Sequence record: MF327008
Strand: one strand, 5' to 3'
Origin: Shigella phage Sf24
Length of the DNA stretch: 64,000 nt
Positions 5,586 through 60,036 of the stretch are shown here, piece by piece. How positions within the stretch are numbered: position 1 is the stretch's first letter; each line of letters starts with the position of its first letter. The notes under the pieces are model-generated. The model searched no databases. It was not told where the DNA came from and worked only from the letters and a program-made list of their open reading frames with translations. Made by a program: the position numbers and the translations under genes.

Positions 5586-5795
5586 TTAAATTACATGATT
5601 ATTTATAATAAATTCTCGCGGAACGTTAAAATACCCAATTTTAGTTAATATAACAATATCGCCGTTAATAATTACCGGAGAATAATCTTCTGGAGCATTA
5701 AATTTCCAATGGGCTCTAATATTATATCCATCAGAACCAAATGCTCGAGTAGCCGGTCTCCCGGCTTTTTGCCACGCGTAGAAATCAAATTTCAT
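5586..5795 (-). CDS. hypothetical small protein (69 aa)
   Basis: Track ORF between soc and 56. Confidence 0.5.
   Translation of the reverse strand: MKFDFYAWQKAGRPATRAFGSDGYNIRAHWKFNAPEDYSPVIINGDIVILTKIGYFNVPREFIINNHVI
5600..5607 (-). promoter_or_regulatory. late promoter TATAAATA for soc
   Basis: Exact TATAAATA about 30 nt upstream of soc ATG. Confidence 0.7.
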
Positions 5796-5992
5796 TTTGA
5801 ATGCTCTATAATTAATTTTAAGGCTTCTTCGCTGACAAAAATTTCATCAAGACCTTCTTCTATAACCCAATCAACCATACGAAGTTGATTAGTTAAGAGC
5901 TCACATACGAGCTCCTTGTTATAATCTTTAAATAGCTGGTCAATACGTTTCTTATGGGCTTTCTTAAGCTGACGCTTATTTAAACGAGCCAT
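5792..5992 (-). CDS. hypothetical small protein (66 aa)
   Basis: Track ORF between soc and 56. Confidence 0.5.
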   Translation of the reverse strand: MARLNKRQLKKAHKKRIDQLFKDYNKELVCELLTNQLRMVDWVIEEGLDEIFVSEEALKLIIEHSK

Positions 5993-6510
5993 TAATAACC
6001 TCGGTCTTGACGAGCGAAGTTTTCAGCATTTTTCAGGTAATAAAGTTTAAAGATTTCTTCAGCTGACATTCCAAGAGCAATAAATTTATTCATGAAAAAG
6101 TGAAATTGGTCAATCAGTTCAAATTTAATTTCAAGCTGATCTTCGGGAGATAAATCTTGAATTTTCTTGGATTGCATTTCAGAATAACGTTTCTTCCAAG
6201 GTTTCCATACAGCAGAAGCTTCTTTTTCACCATTACTCATACCACCAAGAGAAGTATATAGTTCGCGAGTTTCATCTGCGATATAATCGTCTTGGTTTCG
6301 CAACCAAGCAAGAACTTCTCCTGCGGTTTCAAGTGAATCAGGATGACGATTTGTTTCTGGTTTATCATTAGCCAAACGAATCTGTAAATGCCGCTGCATG
6401 TCAAGCATAACCTGCAATGGGTCAATACTGTGCATAATATACTCAGCATATGCACGATTTGCTTTATCAACACCTTCGATCAAATGAGCACATTCATTAA
6501 AGTGAGCCAT
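5992..6510 (-). CDS. 56: dCTP pyrophosphatase (gene 56)
   Basis: MAHFNECAHLIEG...; start moved to ATG 6508-6510 (track begins at an upstream TTG) with AAAGGA SD; 171 aa. Confidence 0.88.
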   Translation of the reverse strand: MAHFNECAHLIEGVDKANRAYAEYIMHSIDPLQVMLDMQRHLQIRLANDKPETNRHPDSLETAGEVLAWLRNQDDYIADETRELYTSLGGMSNGEKEASAVWKPWKKRYSEMQSKKIQDLSPEDQLEIKFELIDQFHFFMNKFIALGMSAEEIFKLYYLKNAENFARQDRGY

Positions 6511-6544
6511 TATTTTTCCTTTCAATTCATTAATAAGTTAAATA

Positions 6545-6570: not shown

Positions 6571-7910
<1,340 letters not shown>

Positions 7911-7935
7911 TATATCATCCTCAGCAATTTGTTTT

Positions 7936-7965
7936 ATAATACCATAACAAGCTGAGAAAGTAAAC
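7936..7965 (-). promoter_or_regulatory. early promoter upstream of the dam-coupled ORF
   Basis: GTTTAC-N18-TATTAT. Confidence 0.6.
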
Positions 7966-8003
7966 AAATTTATGATAAATATTAATTTAAAGGAGGACGA
8001 CGC

Positions 8004-8204
8004 ATGGTACAAAAATTAATGGCAATTGTTAATGCCATCAAAGGTAATAAAAAACGTATAGCTTTTACTATTTCTGCTATGGTAGGAATTTTACTCTGGA
8101 ACTTTATTTTATCACCTGTTGCAATTGCACATGGTATTAATATTCCAGTAGTTACTCTTGATACATTCGTAGATTTAGCATTTGCTTTAGTTGGGTTAAT
8201 TTAA
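8004..8204 (+). CDS. hypothetical small hydrophobic protein (66 aa) on the plus strand
   Basis: AAGGAGG 7 nt before ATG 8004; occupies an otherwise non-coding ~190-bp gap between gene 61 stop and the 7936-7965 promoter. Confidence 0.4.
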   Translation: MVQKLMAIVNAIKGNKKRIAFTISAMVGILLWNFILSPVAIAHGINIPVVTLDTFVDLAFALVGLI

Positions 8205-9229
8205 ATCTTAGCATATTTAGATAACCTCATTTTAGCCATCAACCCCTGGGCAATATTATTTTTCATATATTCCATAATTTGTTCAGGGGTTGCACCTTCC
8301 TTTCTAATCATATCATTAACATCTTTTGATTTCCAGGGAGATTTATCCCAAAACATAACTCTTTCTCCTGCATCAACTAATTTAGTCATTCGTTTGATAG
8401 TGTCAGGGTGACGAGGTTCATTATCTAAAACCCACACTCGTCTATCTTTAAATGGAACAACTTCTAGGTCTAATTGACCACCCGTAATAGCTATACCATT
8501 TTCAATAAAAAGTGAATCTATAGGTCCTTCTAGAACATATACATCACCATCTTTAACTCGTTCAACACCGTAAATTTTTGTTGCCTCAGGATAAGCTTTG
8601 ATGGTGATATACTTTTGTGGAGCATCTTTCTTTAATGCACGTCCTTGAAAAGACTCAGCTTTTCCGTTAGCATTATAAATTGGAATAACAAGACGAGGCT
8701 CAGAAATTTCCTTTTTGTATGTTCCCGGTGCTATGCTATTAACTAATTTAGGCCATTCGGTTGTAAACCAAAGATATTTCCATTTATCCTTTGGAATACA
8801 ACGAGCTTTTACATATTTTATAATTGGATGGTCTTCCGCCAGTTTATCTAATCTAACGCATGACGGAAGAGATTTAATTATTTTCTTCTCAGGCTGTTTA
8901 GGAAGTTCTTTAGGTTTTTCTACTGGACGACTTTTACCTTTTTCTTTTCTTATTTCAAAGATATACTCACGATATAAATCAGGTTCAAACTCCTTTAAAT
9001 ATATTCCGATTGGTGCATGATAGTTACAGTTATAACAATGAATATTTCCTTCATTATTATCACCATAATACCATCCACGGGCTTTATTTTGGTCGGTTTT
9101 TGAATCTCCACAAACAGGGCATCTAAACCGCAACTTAAAGGTTGAACTATTATTTACTTGTGTAAATTTAGGTAAATGAGCTAATGCACGGTATGCAAAC
9201 TCATTATCAATCCAAGGTATTGATGACAT
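8201..9229 (-). CDS. 61: DNA primase (gene 61)
   Basis: 342 aa; zinc ribbon CPVCGDS...HCYNCNYH; TOPRIM-like VLEGPIDSLF. Confidence 0.92.
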   Translation of the reverse strand: MSSIPWIDNEFAYRALAHLPKFTQVNNSSTFKLRFRCPVCGDSKTDQNKARGWYYGDNNEGNIHCYNCNYHAPIGIYLKEFEPDLYREYIFEIRKEKGKSRPVEKPKELPKQPEKKIIKSLPSCVRLDKLAEDHPIIKYVKARCIPKDKWKYLWFTTEWPKLVNSIAPGTYKKEISEPRLVIPIYNANGKAESFQGRALKKDAPQKYITIKAYPEATKIYGVERVKDGDVYVLEGPIDSLFIENGIAITGGQLDLEVVPFKDRRVWVLDNEPRHPDTIKRMTKLVDAGERVMFWDKSPWKSKDVNDMIRKEGATPEQIMEYMKNNIAQGLMAKMRLSKYAKI

Positions 9230-16704: not shown

Positions 16705-19401
16705 TCAGCCAAACAGGAAGTCTAACGAAGCTTTTTCTTCATAGTCCATACCAGCCGATTCACACATGCCTGCAAGCGGTTTAACAAACGATTTTTGGAA
16801 CAAAGTTGAGTAGTCAATCCAAGACAGTACGTCAGAACGAATTTCTTTTGGAAGTTCTGTACCCGACGGCCAAGCAATGCATTTGTCACCAAATGGATTT
16901 CCTTCACGCAATGGAAGAACCATTACTTTATTTCCATCCAAAATTGGAGCTACACCTAAACCGCTAACAGCTCGACGATAAGTTAGCACACCACGAATAT
17001 GGAACGGACATTTAAATCCTGGCCAACCTTTATCATCATATTTCGCTATATCGTTCGCAGTTTTTACTTCAGCAATAACTTTATAGTCAAGTTGACGATA
17101 TTCTTTCTCGAAGTTCTTGTAATATTCTTGGACAGACTCTTCACCTTCCTGAAGAATACGACGAATACTTTCTTCGAGAGCTTCTTGGACCGCTTTAGGC
17201 GTTGAACTCTGCTGAGTTTCCATACCCATGATTTTTAGATGCGGTTCAGCAAATCGCTTATCTTCCATATCATAAACGTTCAGAGCATAACGCTTTTTCG
17301 CTTTCCAAAATCCACCAACGCCCTTTGAACCAAGTGGAGGGCAAGAAATAGCTTCACGGTCCATATGCATCAGATGCTCGCGGTTATTCATATAATCACA
17401 TAACTCACGATATGCAACATCAATCATAGGTTCCATCTTTTTCTTACCAAACTGATTCATGAATTCAACTAAATCATTTTGTTCTTTAAAGCGATCAAGA
17501 CCTACTTTTTCAATAACTTTATCTACACAAACATATACCGAATCAGTATCACCTGCTGCGATGAAATCTTCACCATTAGTTCCACATACTTTATTCAGAT
17601 ATTCATTAATTTTGCGAGCAATCCACTGAATACCGACTTGACCGAAAATTGTGATAGCAGTAGCATTTCGCAAATCATAGTAGCGGAAATGAATATTACC
17701 AAGAGCACCATAAAGACTGTTAATAAGAATTTTACGGTTCAGCTGATTTGTGTTAGCAAGTGTAGCTGCTTTTTCACATTCTTCAATCAGACTATTGAGA
17801 ACAGATTCGGTGTAATTCGATAATTCATTTAAGAAATCATCACTGAACTTAACATATCGTTCAACTTCTGGTTTAGTTGAGCAAGACCCTGCACCTTTCA
17901 TAATAATCTTTTTAATAGCTTCGGCATTCATTTCTTCCGCGAACATTTTCTTTTTCCAATCTTTACGCTGGAAAAATACTTTAGCGATTTCCTTTGGAAT
18001 GATACCTTCTTGGTGCTTATCATACATCCATCCATTCGGAGAGCAAGAATATTCATCACTTGGCTTAGGAGCTGTTCCTGTGATATATTCATGAATTGGA
18101 TGAACTTTAAACTGCCCGCGAATAGTCTCAGGACTAATGTTAACCTGACGAATAATGCTAGGATACAGAGACGTCAAGTCAAAACTCATAATGTATCGAC
18201 GAGCAATCGGTTTAGGTTCAAACACAAATGCACCTGGAAAACTCTGTTTAACATGCGAACCTTGTTGAGGAATAACCTTATGTTCACCTTTAAGTGAGTT
18301 AAAAATAATAGCGTCCCAAGTTTTAATAGGACTCATTACACCAGAAAAAGGCATTTTAGCGTAATAAGACATACTTAAAACTAGATCGATAAACCCACGA
18401 ATTTTATCAATTGCTTGAACTGATTCTACGTCAATGATGTTATAACTAATGTATCGTTGATGATTAGTCTCACGAAGTTTATTAATAGGACCATCGTACG
18501 GCAATTTACCTTTTTTGGTTTCATGTTGAGCAACTGATTCCAAAGAGAACGATGGCAAATTAGTAAATGCGAATTTCTTGTACAAATCTAAATAATCAAG
18601 AATAGACACGCCATCAATAGAATAAATTTCTTTGCTACCGTACATATTTTGAATTAGTTTAGATTTTACCCGACCGATTGGAGAGAAGCGTTTCATACTA
18701 CGTTCACCGAGAACCATTTTAACGCGATTCATGATATACGGAACGTCAAATCCCTCAATATTCCAACCAGTAAAAATAGCAGGTCGTTTCTGTTCCCAGA
18801 GATTAATATATTCCATGAGCATATCGCGCTCATTATCAAATGGCATATAAATTACTCGGTCAAGAATTTCTTGAGGAACTTCATCACCACCTTCACAGTC
18901 AAGCTTAGCAGCTAACTTTGCATCCCATTTTGATACTGAACCATACATTGAATTCAAAAGGTCGAAAACATAAAAACGATCATCAATTGAATCGTAATGA
19001 GTGATAGCATCAATTTCATATTCAGCTTTCATTGGGTCAGGAAATTTATCACCAGTAACCTCAATGTCACAGTTAGCTACACGAACAAATTTTCGGTCAT
19101 AAACAATTTCTGAACCGTATGTATCACTGATATAAGCGAGTTTAAAATCGTTCATACCGAGAGCTTCGAGACCGATGTCTTCCATTCGTTTCATCCAATC
19201 TCGAGCATCTTTCATTGATGGAAATTTTTGAGGAGCGCAGTTTTTACCATAGATGTCTTTGTATTTTGACTCTTCCTTACAATGCCTAAACATAGTCGGA
19301 AGATATTCTACTTCACGAGTACGTTCCTTTCCGTTTTCATCAATATAACGTTCAACAATGTTATTTCCAACTGTTTCGATAGAGATATAAAATTCTTTCA
19401 T
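16705..19401 (-). CDS. 43: DNA polymerase (gene 43)
   Basis: 898 aa; family B pol, exo motifs and GDTDS. Confidence 0.97.
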   Translation of the reverse strand: MKEFYISIETVGNNIVERYIDENGKERTREVEYLPTMFRHCKEESKYKDIYGKNCAPQKFPSMKDARDWMKRMEDIGLEALGMNDFKLAYISDTYGSEIVYDRKFVRVANCDIEVTGDKFPDPMKAEYEIDAITHYDSIDDRFYVFDLLNSMYGSVSKWDAKLAAKLDCEGGDEVPQEILDRVIYMPFDNERDMLMEYINLWEQKRPAIFTGWNIEGFDVPYIMNRVKMVLGERSMKRFSPIGRVKSKLIQNMYGSKEIYSIDGVSILDYLDLYKKFAFTNLPSFSLESVAQHETKKGKLPYDGPINKLRETNHQRYISYNIIDVESVQAIDKIRGFIDLVLSMSYYAKMPFSGVMSPIKTWDAIIFNSLKGEHKVIPQQGSHVKQSFPGAFVFEPKPIARRYIMSFDLTSLYPSIIRQVNISPETIRGQFKVHPIHEYITGTAPKPSDEYSCSPNGWMYDKHQEGIIPKEIAKVFFQRKDWKKKMFAEEMNAEAIKKIIMKGAGSCSTKPEVERYVKFSDDFLNELSNYTESVLNSLIEECEKAATLANTNQLNRKILINSLYGALGNIHFRYYDLRNATAITIFGQVGIQWIARKINEYLNKVCGTNGEDFIAAGDTDSVYVCVDKVIEKVGLDRFKEQNDLVEFMNQFGKKKMEPMIDVAYRELCDYMNNREHLMHMDREAISCPPLGSKGVGGFWKAKKRYALNVYDMEDKRFAEPHLKIMGMETQQSSTPKAVQEALEESIRRILQEGEESVQEYYKNFEKEYRQLDYKVIAEVKTANDIAKYDDKGWPGFKCPFHIRGVLTYRRAVSGLGVAPILDGNKVMVLPLREGNPFGDKCIAWPSGTELPKEIRSDVLSWIDYSTLFQKSFVKPLAGMCESAGMDYEEKASLDFLFG

Positions 19402-57561: not shown

Positions 57562-57606
57562 AGCATTTCCTTTAGTTAATTAAGGGGTTTTATAATCCGT
57601 GGGAGT

Positions 57607-57636
57607 ATTATACTCTACTCCCAAGAGTTTGTAAAC
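57607..57636 (-). promoter_or_regulatory. early promoter overlapping inverted repeat GGGAGTA/TACTCCC
   Basis: GTTTACA-N18-TATAAT. Confidence 0.65.
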
Positions 57637-57969
57637 TTATTCTTCGTCCAATTCATCAATAAATTTATCGATACTACTATTAATAGACTCATCGATGATT
57701 AACAAAGCATCATCATCCATAATATTAATATTTTCTAAAGCATCAATATAAGCTTGATTGACTATAGACCATGCCCTTTGAAAATATGGGGCTTCATCAT
57801 CAGGACTGAACCAACGTACACCTTCAAAGATACGTTTGGCATAATCTAACACCCATTGTACAGGCATGTTTTGAGAACGTTCGTTAAACTCTTTAAAGTC
57901 CTTAGATTCAAAAAGCTCTTCAGGATAATAATTTCTATTACAAAAAGCTTTACTAAAGTTACGTTTCAT
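57637..57969 (-). CDS. hypothetical acidic protein (110 aa)
   Basis: Track ORF; early promoter upstream. Confidence 0.55.
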   Translation of the reverse strand: MKRNFSKAFCNRNYYPEELFESKDFKEFNERSQNMPVQWVLDYAKRIFEGVRWFSPDDEAPYFQRAWSIVNQAYIDALENINIMDDDALLIIDESINSSIDKFIDELDEE

Positions 57970-59204: not shown

Positions 59205-59281
<77 letters not shown>

Positions 59282-59285
59282 TATT

Positions 59286-59360
59286 TGGCGGACATGCATG
59301 GATTCGAACCATGGACCAATTGATTAACAGTCAACTGCTCTACCATTGAGCTACACATCC
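59286..59360 (-). tRNA. tRNA-Asn (anticodon GUU)
   Basis: Hand-folded: anticodon loop CTGTTAA, T-arm CATGG-TTCGAAT-CCATG, CCA encoded. Confidence 0.75.
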
Positions 59361-59364
59361 AAAT

Positions 59365-59451
59365 TGGTGGGGAGTGATGGAGTCGAACCACCCGAGTCGC
59401 AATGACAATGAATTTACAGTCCACACCGCTACCTCTACGGGATAACTCCCC
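59365..59451 (-). tRNA. tRNA-Tyr (anticodon GUA), long variable arm
   Basis: Hand-folded 87 nt: acceptor GGGGAGT/ACTCCCC, anticodon loop CTGTAAA, T-loop TTCGACT, CCA encoded. Confidence 0.75.
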
Positions 59452-59463
59452 TAATTCATAATT

Positions 59464-59538
59464 TGGTGGCCCTGGGTGGAATTGAACCACCATCTGGCGA
59501 TTATGAGTCGCTTGCTTGAACCTTCCAGCTACAGGGCC
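59464..59538 (-). tRNA. tRNA with CAU anticodon (Ile2-type or Met)
   Basis: Hand-folded: acceptor GGCCCTG/CAGGGCC, anticodon loop CTCATAA, T-loop TTCAATT, CCA encoded. Confidence 0.75.
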
Positions 59539-59539
59539 T

Positions 59540-59615
59540 TGGTGCTGATTGACGGAATCGAACCGCCGACCTTCTCATTACAAGTGAGTTGCTCTACCTA
59601 CTGAGCTAAATCAGC
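59540..59615 (-). tRNA. tRNA-Thr (anticodon UGU)
   Basis: Hand-folded: acceptor GCTGATT/AATCAGC, D-arm GCTC..GAGC, anticodon loop CTTGTAA, T-loop TTCGATT. Confidence 0.8.
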
Positions 59616-59620
59616 AAAAC

Positions 59621-59710
59621 TGGCGGAGGCGATAGGATTTGAACCTATGAGTCGCCGGAGCGACTGCCGGTTTTCAAGACCGGTGCATTAAACCACTCTG
59701 CCACGCCTCC
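59621..59710 (-). tRNA. tRNA-Ser (anticodon UGA), long variable arm
   Basis: Hand-folded 90 nt: acceptor GGAGGCG/CGCCTCC, anticodon stem CCGGT/ACCGG with loop CTTGAAA, T-loop TTCAAAT. Confidence 0.8.
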
Positions 59711-59712
59711 AG

Positions 59713-59786
59713 TCTCCATACAAGGATTTGAACCTTGGACCTCCTGATCCCAAATCAGGCGCTCTACCAAACTGAGCTACACGGAG
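59713..59786 (-). tRNA. tRNA-Pro (anticodon UGG)
   Basis: Hand-folded: anticodon stem CCTGA/TCAGG with loop TTTGGGA, T-arm CAAGG-TTCAAAT-CCTTG; CCA not encoded. Confidence 0.8.
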
Positions 59787-59796
59787 TAAATTAAAT

Positions 59797-59870
<74 letters not shown>

Positions 59871-59875
59871 AAATT

Positions 59876-59962
59876 TGGTGCGAGAAGTGGGACTCGAACC
59901 CACAAGGAAATCATTCCGCAGCATTTTAAGTGCTGTGCCTTTACCAATTTGACCATTCTCGC
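59876..59962 (-). tRNA. tRNA-Leu (anticodon UAA), long variable arm
   Basis: Hand-folded 87 nt: acceptor GCGAGAA/TTCTCGC, anticodon stem CAGCA/TGCTG with loop CTTAAAA, T-loop TTCGAGT. Confidence 0.8.
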
Positions 59963-59963
59963 G

Positions 59964-60036
59964 CTGGGAATAAAGGACTCGAACCTTTGCATCCTGGAAT
60001 CAAAATCCAGTGCCTTACCAACTTGGCTAATTCCCA
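59964..60036 (-). tRNA. tRNA-Gln (anticodon UUG)
   Basis: Hand-folded: acceptor TGGGAAT/ATTCCCA, anticodon stem CTGGA/TCCAG with loop TTTTGAT, T-loop TTCGAGT; CCA not encoded. Confidence 0.8.

Follow-up and report, generated by a model that had tools for sequence, protein, structure and literature searches.

A probable plus-strand gene, dam.1, convergent on the primase gene of Shigella phage Sf24 and other T4-like phages

Introduction

In phage T4, early and middle transcripts all run counterclockwise, and late transcripts may run in either direction (Geiduschek and Kassavetis, PMC2988020). The T4 late promoter is an 8-bp box, TATAAATA, with no -35 element; among 50 listed late promoters 32 have the perfect box, nine carry an A at -13 and most of the others show single deviations (PMC2988020). 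Isolated late genes of the T4 soc type follow this pattern in a compact form, as short units among early genes with an 8-bp late box, a short leader and a strong Shine–Dalgarno sequence. Late genes that stand alone, away from the structural clusters, often have to do with lysis or with decoration of the particle.

Small membrane and envelope proteins with accessory roles have been described in T4 and elsewhere. The T4 antiholin RI has 97 aa and a signal-anchor-release domain, and T4 Imm and Sp (spackle) are small, envelope-targeted accessory proteins of superinfection exclusion, encoded by early genes on the minus strand. BSPM4 ORF52, a protein of 64 aa with a single transmembrane domain, is encoded away from the lysis cassette and modulates the holin (PMC11657625).

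Here we analyse a small plus-strand open reading frame (ORF) of Shigella phage Sf24 (record MF327008), which lies at positions 8004–8204 of a 64,000-nucleotide stretch of that genome (hereafter 'the window', position 1 being its first letter). An earlier note, made from the sequence letters alone, had described it as a small membrane ORF in an otherwise all-minus early region, either a real convergent gene or an antisense element. We compare the locus with its counterparts in other T4-like phages and weigh the readings that the sequence permits.

Results

The plus-strand ORF and its surroundings

The segment 7300–8300 of the window is 99.9% identical to Shigella phage Sf25 and 97–98% identical to T2 and many Tequatrovirus genomes. 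The local gene order on the minus strand is gene 56 (dCTPase, 5992–6525), dam (6571–7350), a 185-aa ORF (7350–7907) and gene 61 (DNA primase, 8201–9229, with its TAA at 8203–8201), after which come 61.1 and more minus-strand genes. The 185-aa ORF separates the plus-strand ORF from dam in T2 as it does in the window, whereas T4 lacks it. Of the 64 kb, 90% lies within minus-strand, ATG-initiated ORFs of 60 aa or more, and 7911–8200 is one of eight gaps of at least 150 nt that hold none. The ORF at 8004–8204 is the sole plus-strand ORF of at least 40 aa in the 64 kb that has a Shine–Dalgarno sequence and lies inside such a gap, and it is opposite in strand to every early and middle gene of the window.

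The signals reported for this ORF were recovered as described. It starts with the ATG at 8004, ends with the TAA at 8202–8204 and encodes 66 aa (MVQKLMAIVNAIKGNKKRIAFTISAMVGILLWNFILSPVAIAHGINIPVVTLDTFVDLAFALVGLI) with a GRAVY of 1.26, in agreement with its description as hydrophobic. The Shine–Dalgarno sequence AAGGAGG (7990–7996, plus strand, read from the sequence) is followed by a 7-nt spacer (acgacgc) and then the ATG. At the other end, the tetranucleotide TTAA (8201–8204) holds the stop codons of both the plus-strand ORF and its convergent neighbour, gene 61. The accompanying statement that the stretch has no minus-strand ORF stands in part: there is none of at least 60 aa with an ATG in 7911–8200, but the minus-strand reading frame of gp61 continues beyond the gp61 stop for 84 codons before it meets another.

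Existing annotation

This ORF is already known, as an annotated hypothetical gene in hundreds of genomes. In the T4T record HM137666 it is labelled 'dam.1, hypothetical protein' (Dam.1, ADJ39749.1), and the window protein is 97% identical to T4T Dam.1, with the same position and orientation against gene 61. The T2 label reads 'similar to RB69ORF029w; RB32030w', and in fPS-65, ASO78A and hundreds of other records the ORF is a 'hypothetical protein' or 'Phage protein'; further family members go under the names RB69ORF029w, RB32ORF030w and VR7ORF033w. We use dam.1 for the whole family, a name that is positional only: Mosigvirus and Gaprivervirus carry the gene without an adjoining dam. The window protein also matches phrog_2024, for which no function is given (E 8.3e-31, residues 2–66 against positions 1–65 of the 65-position profile).

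In the T4 RefSeq record NC_000866.4 the ORF is intact at 17738–17938 and is left without annotation. The T4T record was described with 280 ORFs against 278 in the older one (PMC2993671). Our literature search found no paper naming dam.1, ORF029w, ORF030w or ORF033w, and found no transcript or protein data for the dam.1 gene.

Distribution and synteny of the dam.1 family

A tblastn search found the ORF in 691 phage records, 684 of which cover at least 80% of the protein. It is present at 80% identity or more in 501 records, as against 500 records with gp61 at 95% identity or more, from which we conclude that essentially every Tequatrovirus genome of the collection carries it. About 190 more records (Mosigvirus and Gaprivervirus) have a homolog at 43–56% identity, in the same place and orientation. 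Distant members were sought with a profile from the close homologs. In Klebsiella phage Roth51 this identified an opposite-strand ORF of 63 aa that abuts the primase gene (profile E 1e-8), and in Salmonella phage STML-198 (Gelderlandvirus) one of 69 aa in the same situation (profile E 2e-10). Homologs at about 20–55% identity, which share this slot and converge on the primase gene, were found in at least six named genera, the distant ones in Mosigvirus, Gaprivervirus, Gelderlandvirus and T4-like phages of Klebsiella and Citrobacter.

The position of the gene can be read directly from these genomes, and the synteny is the same in every locus fetched. The family member lies on the other strand from its neighbours, with genes 56/dam on one side and gene 61, on whose 3' end it converges, on the other, in the window, T2, T4T, fPS-65, ASO78A, Mosigvirus, Gaprivervirus and P8, and also in Roth51, STML-198, Potts1, Marfa, CkP1 and the loci L027 (a metagenomic lineage) and L030; its neighbours are the primase gene, dam or a REase-like ORF, and gene 56. 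In Karamvirus EnC15 and Winklervirus CHI14 the slot is taken by same-strand genes, and no homolog was found there.

A profile search of a large protein collection returned 114 clusters, all of 41–73 aa (full-length members, 62–69 aa), and nearly all of the named members among them are called 'hypothetical protein'. Their sources are T4-like phages of Escherichia, Yersinia, Klebsiella (Potts1, Marfa, PKO111 and pzk-kv8), Salmonella and Citrobacter, or bacterial assemblies. An exhaustive single-sequence HMMER search gave nine matches, with nothing credible outside T4-like phages; the long matches that we inspected were repeat proteins and were taken as spurious.

The family divides into three subfamilies, which share the invariant residues M1, W32, N33, P38 and G44 and the nearly invariant A40, P48 and G64. 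The window protein fits the family description in its length (63–69 aa in the family), its basic N-terminal region, its single long hydrophobic helix and its W-N...P...G motif. In Gaprivervirus there is a second, tandem copy, which belongs to the Klebsiella-phage subfamily and fills the 200 bp between the first copy and the primase gene; VR7-like and VR26-like genomes have this copy in full length, and in VR20 its N-terminus is interrupted. The TTAA stop overlap with gene 61 is found in Tequatrovirus, Mosigvirus, Potts1, Marfa, CkP1 and STML-198, and has been lost in Gaprivervirus (copy 1), P8, Roth51, L027 and L030.

Coding capacity of the two strands

Across 20 loci the plus frame is stop-free without exception. 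Variable columns number 45, 21 and 56 at codon positions 1, 2 and 3, respectively, so that second positions are the most conserved, and pairwise dN/dS in this frame ranges from 0.07 to 0.68. We nonetheless dropped dN/dS as proof of coding, since the minus frame in phase with gp61 gives similar ratios within Tequatrovirus; the third codon positions of the two frames coincide, which accounts for their similar pN/pS. Because this measure does not discriminate, we relied on stops in the minus frames, identity between genera, start signals and distant homologs.

These four lines of evidence bear directly on the possibility that the conserved frame is the minus-strand one, reached by read-through of the gp61 UAA into the 84-codon open continuation. 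That continuation is open not only in the window but in 13 of the 20 homologous loci, and its pN/pS within Tequatrovirus resembles that of the plus frame. Its openness, however, is explained by the plus-strand protein, which has no Tyr and nearly no His or Gln codons. The frame has no start codon or Shine–Dalgarno sequence of its own and lies behind a UAA; it is stopped in the Tequatrovirus locus L013 and in all Gaprivervirus loci, and in Roth51 and STML-198 stops close each of the three frames on the primase strand, with the ORF on the other strand intact. In Gaprivervirus, P8, Roth51, L027 and L030 the ORF is not even contiguous with gp61. Between genera, the gp61-phase frame gives identities of 0.41, 0.40 and 0.37, against 0.55, 0.49 and 0.48 for the plus frame. 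On the stops, the lower between-genus identity and the missing start signals we rejected a read-through extension of gp61, whose probability we consider negligible.

A different objection is that the stretch does not code for protein at all, but comprises the 3' UTR of gene 61, a terminator and the promoter of the next minus-strand unit, the plus-strand ORF being fortuitous. Elements of this kind are indeed present. A pattern scan of the minus strand located a terminator-like hairpin (8016–8041) with a U-run, spanning 8006–8041 in all, some 160 nt past the end of gene 61 and within codons 1–13 of the ORF; its fold energy is -14.6 kcal/mol (z -3.8), and the records of two relatives, fPS-65 and ASO78A, mark it as a terminator. 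Just upstream of the ORF, the scan found a sigma-70/T4-early-type promoter-like site on the minus strand (7936–7964, TTTACT-17-TATTAT with TG), which would serve the downstream 185-aa ORF and dam and whose equivalent is an annotated early promoter in the same two phages. The silence of the T4 RefSeq annotation at the ORF would also agree with a non-coding stretch. However, the hairpin is weaker in T4 (z -2.0) and, among the loci compared, is restricted to Tequatrovirus: it is absent in Mosigvirus and Gaprivervirus, where the ORF is conserved, and so does not explain the conservation of the ORF. Moreover, the protein is conserved down to about 20–25% identity with invariant residues, the ATG and Shine–Dalgarno sequence are always kept (GGAG or GGAGG precedes the ATG in all loci examined), and a tandem duplicate of the gene exists. 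The two roles are in any case compatible, as a terminator can sit within an ORF. A fortuitous ORF in a non-coding stretch is thus very improbable.

The region of codons 1–13 is, in the window, one stretch that serves both strands.

Our reading is that the plus-strand ORF truly encodes a protein, is orthologous to T4 dam.1 and forms a one-gene plus-strand unit between two minus-strand early units; we put the probability of this at roughly 0.8. The frame, the ATG and the Shine–Dalgarno sequence, whose conservation the earlier note had named as a check, are kept across T4-like genera. The ORF persists where the overlap with gene 61 does not, and its product is predicted to be a membrane protein. 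Of the two readings offered in that note, a real convergent gene is accordingly the one retained.

Predicted structure and topology of the protein

The protein is predicted to cross the inner membrane once, as a bitopic protein with its N-terminus inside. AlphaFold2 models from alignments of 13 and 25 rows (pLDDT 76 and 79, respectively) have the same helices, at residues 2–12 (amphipathic), 16–42 and 52–63. Five Lys/Arg residues lie ahead of the hydrophobic core and two Asp residues after it. By the positive-inside rule, this charge distribution would place the N-terminus in the cytoplasm and the C-terminal 24 residues in the periplasm or at the membrane surface. The cytoplasmic part would then consist of the N-terminal amphipathic helix and a basic patch (KGNKKR), the predicted transmembrane helix (approximately residues 16–42) would contain the invariant W32-N33 and P38, and the periplasmic side would be formed by the C-terminal segment of about 24 residues, with G44, P48 and acidic residues. 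The tail of the other two subfamilies carries a D/E-K pair, which speaks against the membrane being crossed a second time. Intramembrane contacts of the helix are suggested by its invariant Trp-Asn, which lies in the outer half, together with the Pro five residues on.

The window protein contains no Cys and no lipobox, and no Pfam, NCBIfam or PADLOC match was found for the ORF. A fold search of the PDB gave no match, and one of viral models returned only family members and weak, unnamed 63-aa matches.

One family member, the OE5505 homolog, is named 'Holin' in UniProt, and a small, hydrophobic, phage-encoded and probably late protein could in principle be a holin. The name, however, was traced to that single entry, where it looks automatic, and it does not agree with the architecture or context of the protein. 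There is no match to a Pfam or NCBIfam holin family, and outside the dam.1 family fold matches to holin-named viral proteins appear only at E 7.8. The protein ends in ...DLAFALVGLI, with no charged C-terminal tail. No endolysin gene or lysis cassette adjoins the gene, the neighbours being primase, dam and gene 56, and T4-type phages already have holin T. We therefore rejected the label on architecture and context, and regard a holin as a very doubtful identity for Dam.1.

A predicted late promoter

Because early and middle transcripts of T4 are all counterclockwise, a plus-strand gene in this region could by this rule only be late. Ahead of dam.1, on the plus strand, is the sequence GATAAATA (7974–7981), which matches the T4 late promoter box TATAAATA at seven of eight positions, sits 22 nt ahead of the ATG and predicts a transcript start near 7987–7989. 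It is back to back with the minus-strand promoter-like site at 7936–7964. The core ATAAATA occurs in five plus-strand copies in the 64 kb, and only the copy at 7974–7981 is followed by a Shine–Dalgarno sequence and an ATG; the chance of such a motif in a 12-nt slot is about 0.001.

Each of the 20 close loci carries NATAAATA at -24 to -30, and the upstream sequences around it are of four unrelated kinds. The box is the perfect TATAAATA in Klebsiella phages Potts1 and Marfa and ATTAAATA in CkP1 and STML-198, and L027 has only TACAAATA at -50. The perfect box is never found in Tequatrovirus, Mosigvirus or Gaprivervirus, where the first base is G, A or C. Departures at the first base also occur among the late promoters of T4 (PMC2988020).

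From the strand rule and this motif, dam.1 is most likely a late gene with its own predicted promoter, and its expression is probably confined to the late period by the direction of transcription described above. In T4 late units, which are expressed after replication has begun, the box lies about one helical turn ahead of the transcript start. Late in infection, RNA polymerase dependent on gp55, gp33 and gp45 would start about 6 nt past GATAAATA and produce an mRNA whose leader, about 15 nt long, has a strong Shine–Dalgarno sequence; in the predicted fold of this 5' end the Shine–Dalgarno sequence and the AUG are unpaired. Such a unit would resemble the soc-type late genes in its shortness, its late box, its leader and ribosome-binding site and its place among early genes. 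It differs from them in that its box has G as the first base and its promoter is a predicted one only, and in that the unit has the opposite direction to the early genes around it, within one of which it is predicted to end.

The 3' end and the question of antisense

Beyond the ORF, the dam.1 mRNA would pass into the 3' end of gene 61, antisense to it, and a long hairpin there (CAACCCCUGGGCAA ... UUGUUCAGGGGUUG, 8240–8292, plus strand) may stop or stabilise it. The hairpin falls within the 3' part of the gene 61 coding sequence and has a z-score of -3.7 when read on the plus strand and -1.5 on the primase-sense strand, a bias due to two G-U pairs that form only on the plus strand; as background, one of 128 genome windows reached z of -3.3 or lower. 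These values are suggestive of a terminator or a 3' stabiliser of the plus-strand transcript, for which we regard the hairpin as a candidate.

Wherever the ORF overlaps gene 61, a long hairpin lies 36–90 nt downstream, inside the gene 61 coding sequence. Similarly placed hairpins of different sequence occur in Mosigvirus (z -3.5), Potts1 (z -3.9), CkP1 (z -5.9) and STML-198 (z -3.5), and none was found in EnC15 or CHI14, the phages that lack the ORF. The downstream hairpins have no common pairing register and RNAalifold gave no consensus; 11–17 of the 19 pairs of the window register are kept in other genera, as against 10–13 of 19 in controls. We treat the 8240–8292 hairpin as a lineage-specific element that is no more than suggestive. 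Where there is no primase overlap, a canonical plus-strand intrinsic terminator follows the ORF directly (L030, L027 and L023). In L030 this is the hairpin UAGAGCUUCGGCUCUA followed by GAGUUUUUU, and in L027 it is UAGGGCUUGUCCCUA followed by GAUUUUAG; in Roth51 a compact plus-strand hairpin, GGGGCUUUGGCCCC, directly follows the ORF. A search against Rfam gave no match at gathering score, and the sole match with E < 1 in 7700–8500 was to a microRNA model, by chance.

This arrangement bears on the possibility that dam.1 codes for protein and yet is selected mostly at the RNA level, as a late antisense transcript that shuts off the primase and dam messages. With both stops in one TTAA, as in Tequatrovirus, Mosigvirus, Potts1, Marfa, CkP1 and STML-198, the two mRNAs must be complementary at their 3' ends, and the plus-strand hairpin at 36–90 nt inside gene 61 would fit a transcript that extends into that gene. 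On the other side, the lineages that have lost the overlap (Gaprivervirus copy 1, P8, Roth51, L027 and L030) separate the two genes, and in L027, L030 and Roth51 the terminator directly after the ORF would leave little or no antisense. Conservation of the amino acid sequence, furthermore, needs a function of the protein. Since several lineages separate the genes or terminate right after the ORF, antisense cannot be the conserved function. We consider a mainly RNA-level function unlikely, and prefer a protein-coding late gene selected for its product; a secondary antisense effect on gene 61 mRNA is possible where the genes overlap.

Discussion

That dam.1 is a gene is an ordinary finding, which confirms existing annotation and adds no new kind of element. 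What we add to that annotation is the argument for a late promoter, a wider family with an invariant motif, the tandem duplication in Gaprivervirus, the candidate 3' hairpin within gene 61, and the recognition that the gene is omitted from the T4 reference annotation.

As to function, comparison with described proteins offers analogies. Dam.1 is like BSPM4 ORF52 and the T4 antiholin RI in size and in having a single predicted transmembrane helix, and this is analogy only; with ORF52 it also shares a location off the lysis cassette, a likeness by description and not by sequence. T4 Imm and Sp are comparable as small envelope-targeted accessory proteins, and sp lies a few genes from dam.1 in the same region, but both differ from dam.1 in being early genes on the minus strand, and no search gave any sequence similarity between Dam.1 and either of them. 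By these analogies, and from what isolated late genes often do, one might guess, tentatively, at an accessory late role in the envelope, concerned with lysis timing, lysis inhibition or superinfection and exerted through intramembrane contacts.

In a wider and equally speculative scenario, the dam.1 family could represent a late envelope factor, acting perhaps on holin T and lysis inhibition or in the late exclusion of other phages. Its unit would be nested antisense to primase, with its 3' hairpin in gene 61, and might also silence the primase and dam messages.

T4 is among the best-studied viruses, yet a gene carried by essentially every Tequatrovirus genome, and by several sister genera too, is missing from its RefSeq annotation. 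Transcriptomic, proteomic and knock-down work built on the T4 RefSeq annotation would not report dam.1, and annotation-based genome-wide screens of T4 would, because of this omission, have missed a probable late membrane protein of T4-like phages.

A conserved small gene under inconsistent names

The small plus-strand ORF (8004-8204), the orthologue of T4T dam.1, is intact and conserved in T4 (NC_000866.4) at record positions 17738-17938 (1739-1939 of the homologous locus, L009), yet it is unannotated in that RefSeq record. It is annotated in T4T (HM137666) and in a newer T4 record (OZ209023). Across public records the product names of family members are inconsistent, and the odd ones given to the small protein or its locus are probably wrong: 'Holin' for the OE5505 family member in UniProt, 'putative head morphogenesis protein' in T2 (AP018813) and BW-1, and 'DNA packaging ATPase' in SAKp28, the last also carried by a 33-aa ORF adjoining the small ORF in Yersinia phage P8.

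On the opposite strand, the frame of the primase gp61 stays open beyond its UAA, running for 84 codons of the window without a stop (7949-8200, minus strand). The same continuation is closed in locus L013, in Gaprivervirus, in Roth51 and in STML-198, and we explain its openness as a side effect of which amino acids the plus-strand ORF encodes.

Late-promoter box matches and predicted RNA structure in the window

Perfect matches to the T4 late promoter box, TATAAATA, number seven in 64 kb, which is not above chance, and all seven lie on the minus strand (at 5600, 47639, 54659, 54672, 60885, 61193 and 62957). ATAAATA is scarce on either strand, with five occurrences on the plus and eight on the minus. 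The strongest-structured 125-nt plus-strand window of the background scan (z -4.2) was found at about 57601-57725; this stretch is situated upstream of a minus-strand cluster of nine tRNA genes (59208-60036).

A possible restriction partner for dam

Directly upstream of dam lies a minus-strand ORF of 185 aa (phrog_8706, 7350-7907), whose stop overlaps the dam start. Its matches to type II restriction endonucleases are weak (E 2.4e-4 against PADLOC REase_II and 0.0098 against Pfam DpnII). It also contains a D...EIK motif. Because DpnII and Dam both act at GATC, this ORF could be a remnant of a phage-borne restriction-methylase pair, or a partner in one. T4 lacks this ORF, which is present in approximately 29% of the matching records, 144 of 502 of them covering at least 80% of window positions 7300-8300.

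Second copies and inserted genes beside the primase gene

In the VR26-like and VR7-like Gaprivervirus loci L015, L016 and L022, a second, tandem copy (66 aa) of the small gene (beginning MGTLFYQIWKL) sits between the first copy and the primase gene; in L006 and L019 the second-copy region falls at about 1760-1900 of the locus. This second copy belongs to a subfamily otherwise seen in Klebsiella phages, and in VR20 its N-terminus is broken by a stop.

Elsewhere, extra genes have been inserted that separate the small ORF from the primase gene, namely a homing endonuclease gene in P8 (1780-2547 of locus L007) and a 124-aa ORF in locus L030 (1704-2078). The junction is thus a hot spot for insertions, and the small ORF has been retained despite the inserted genes.
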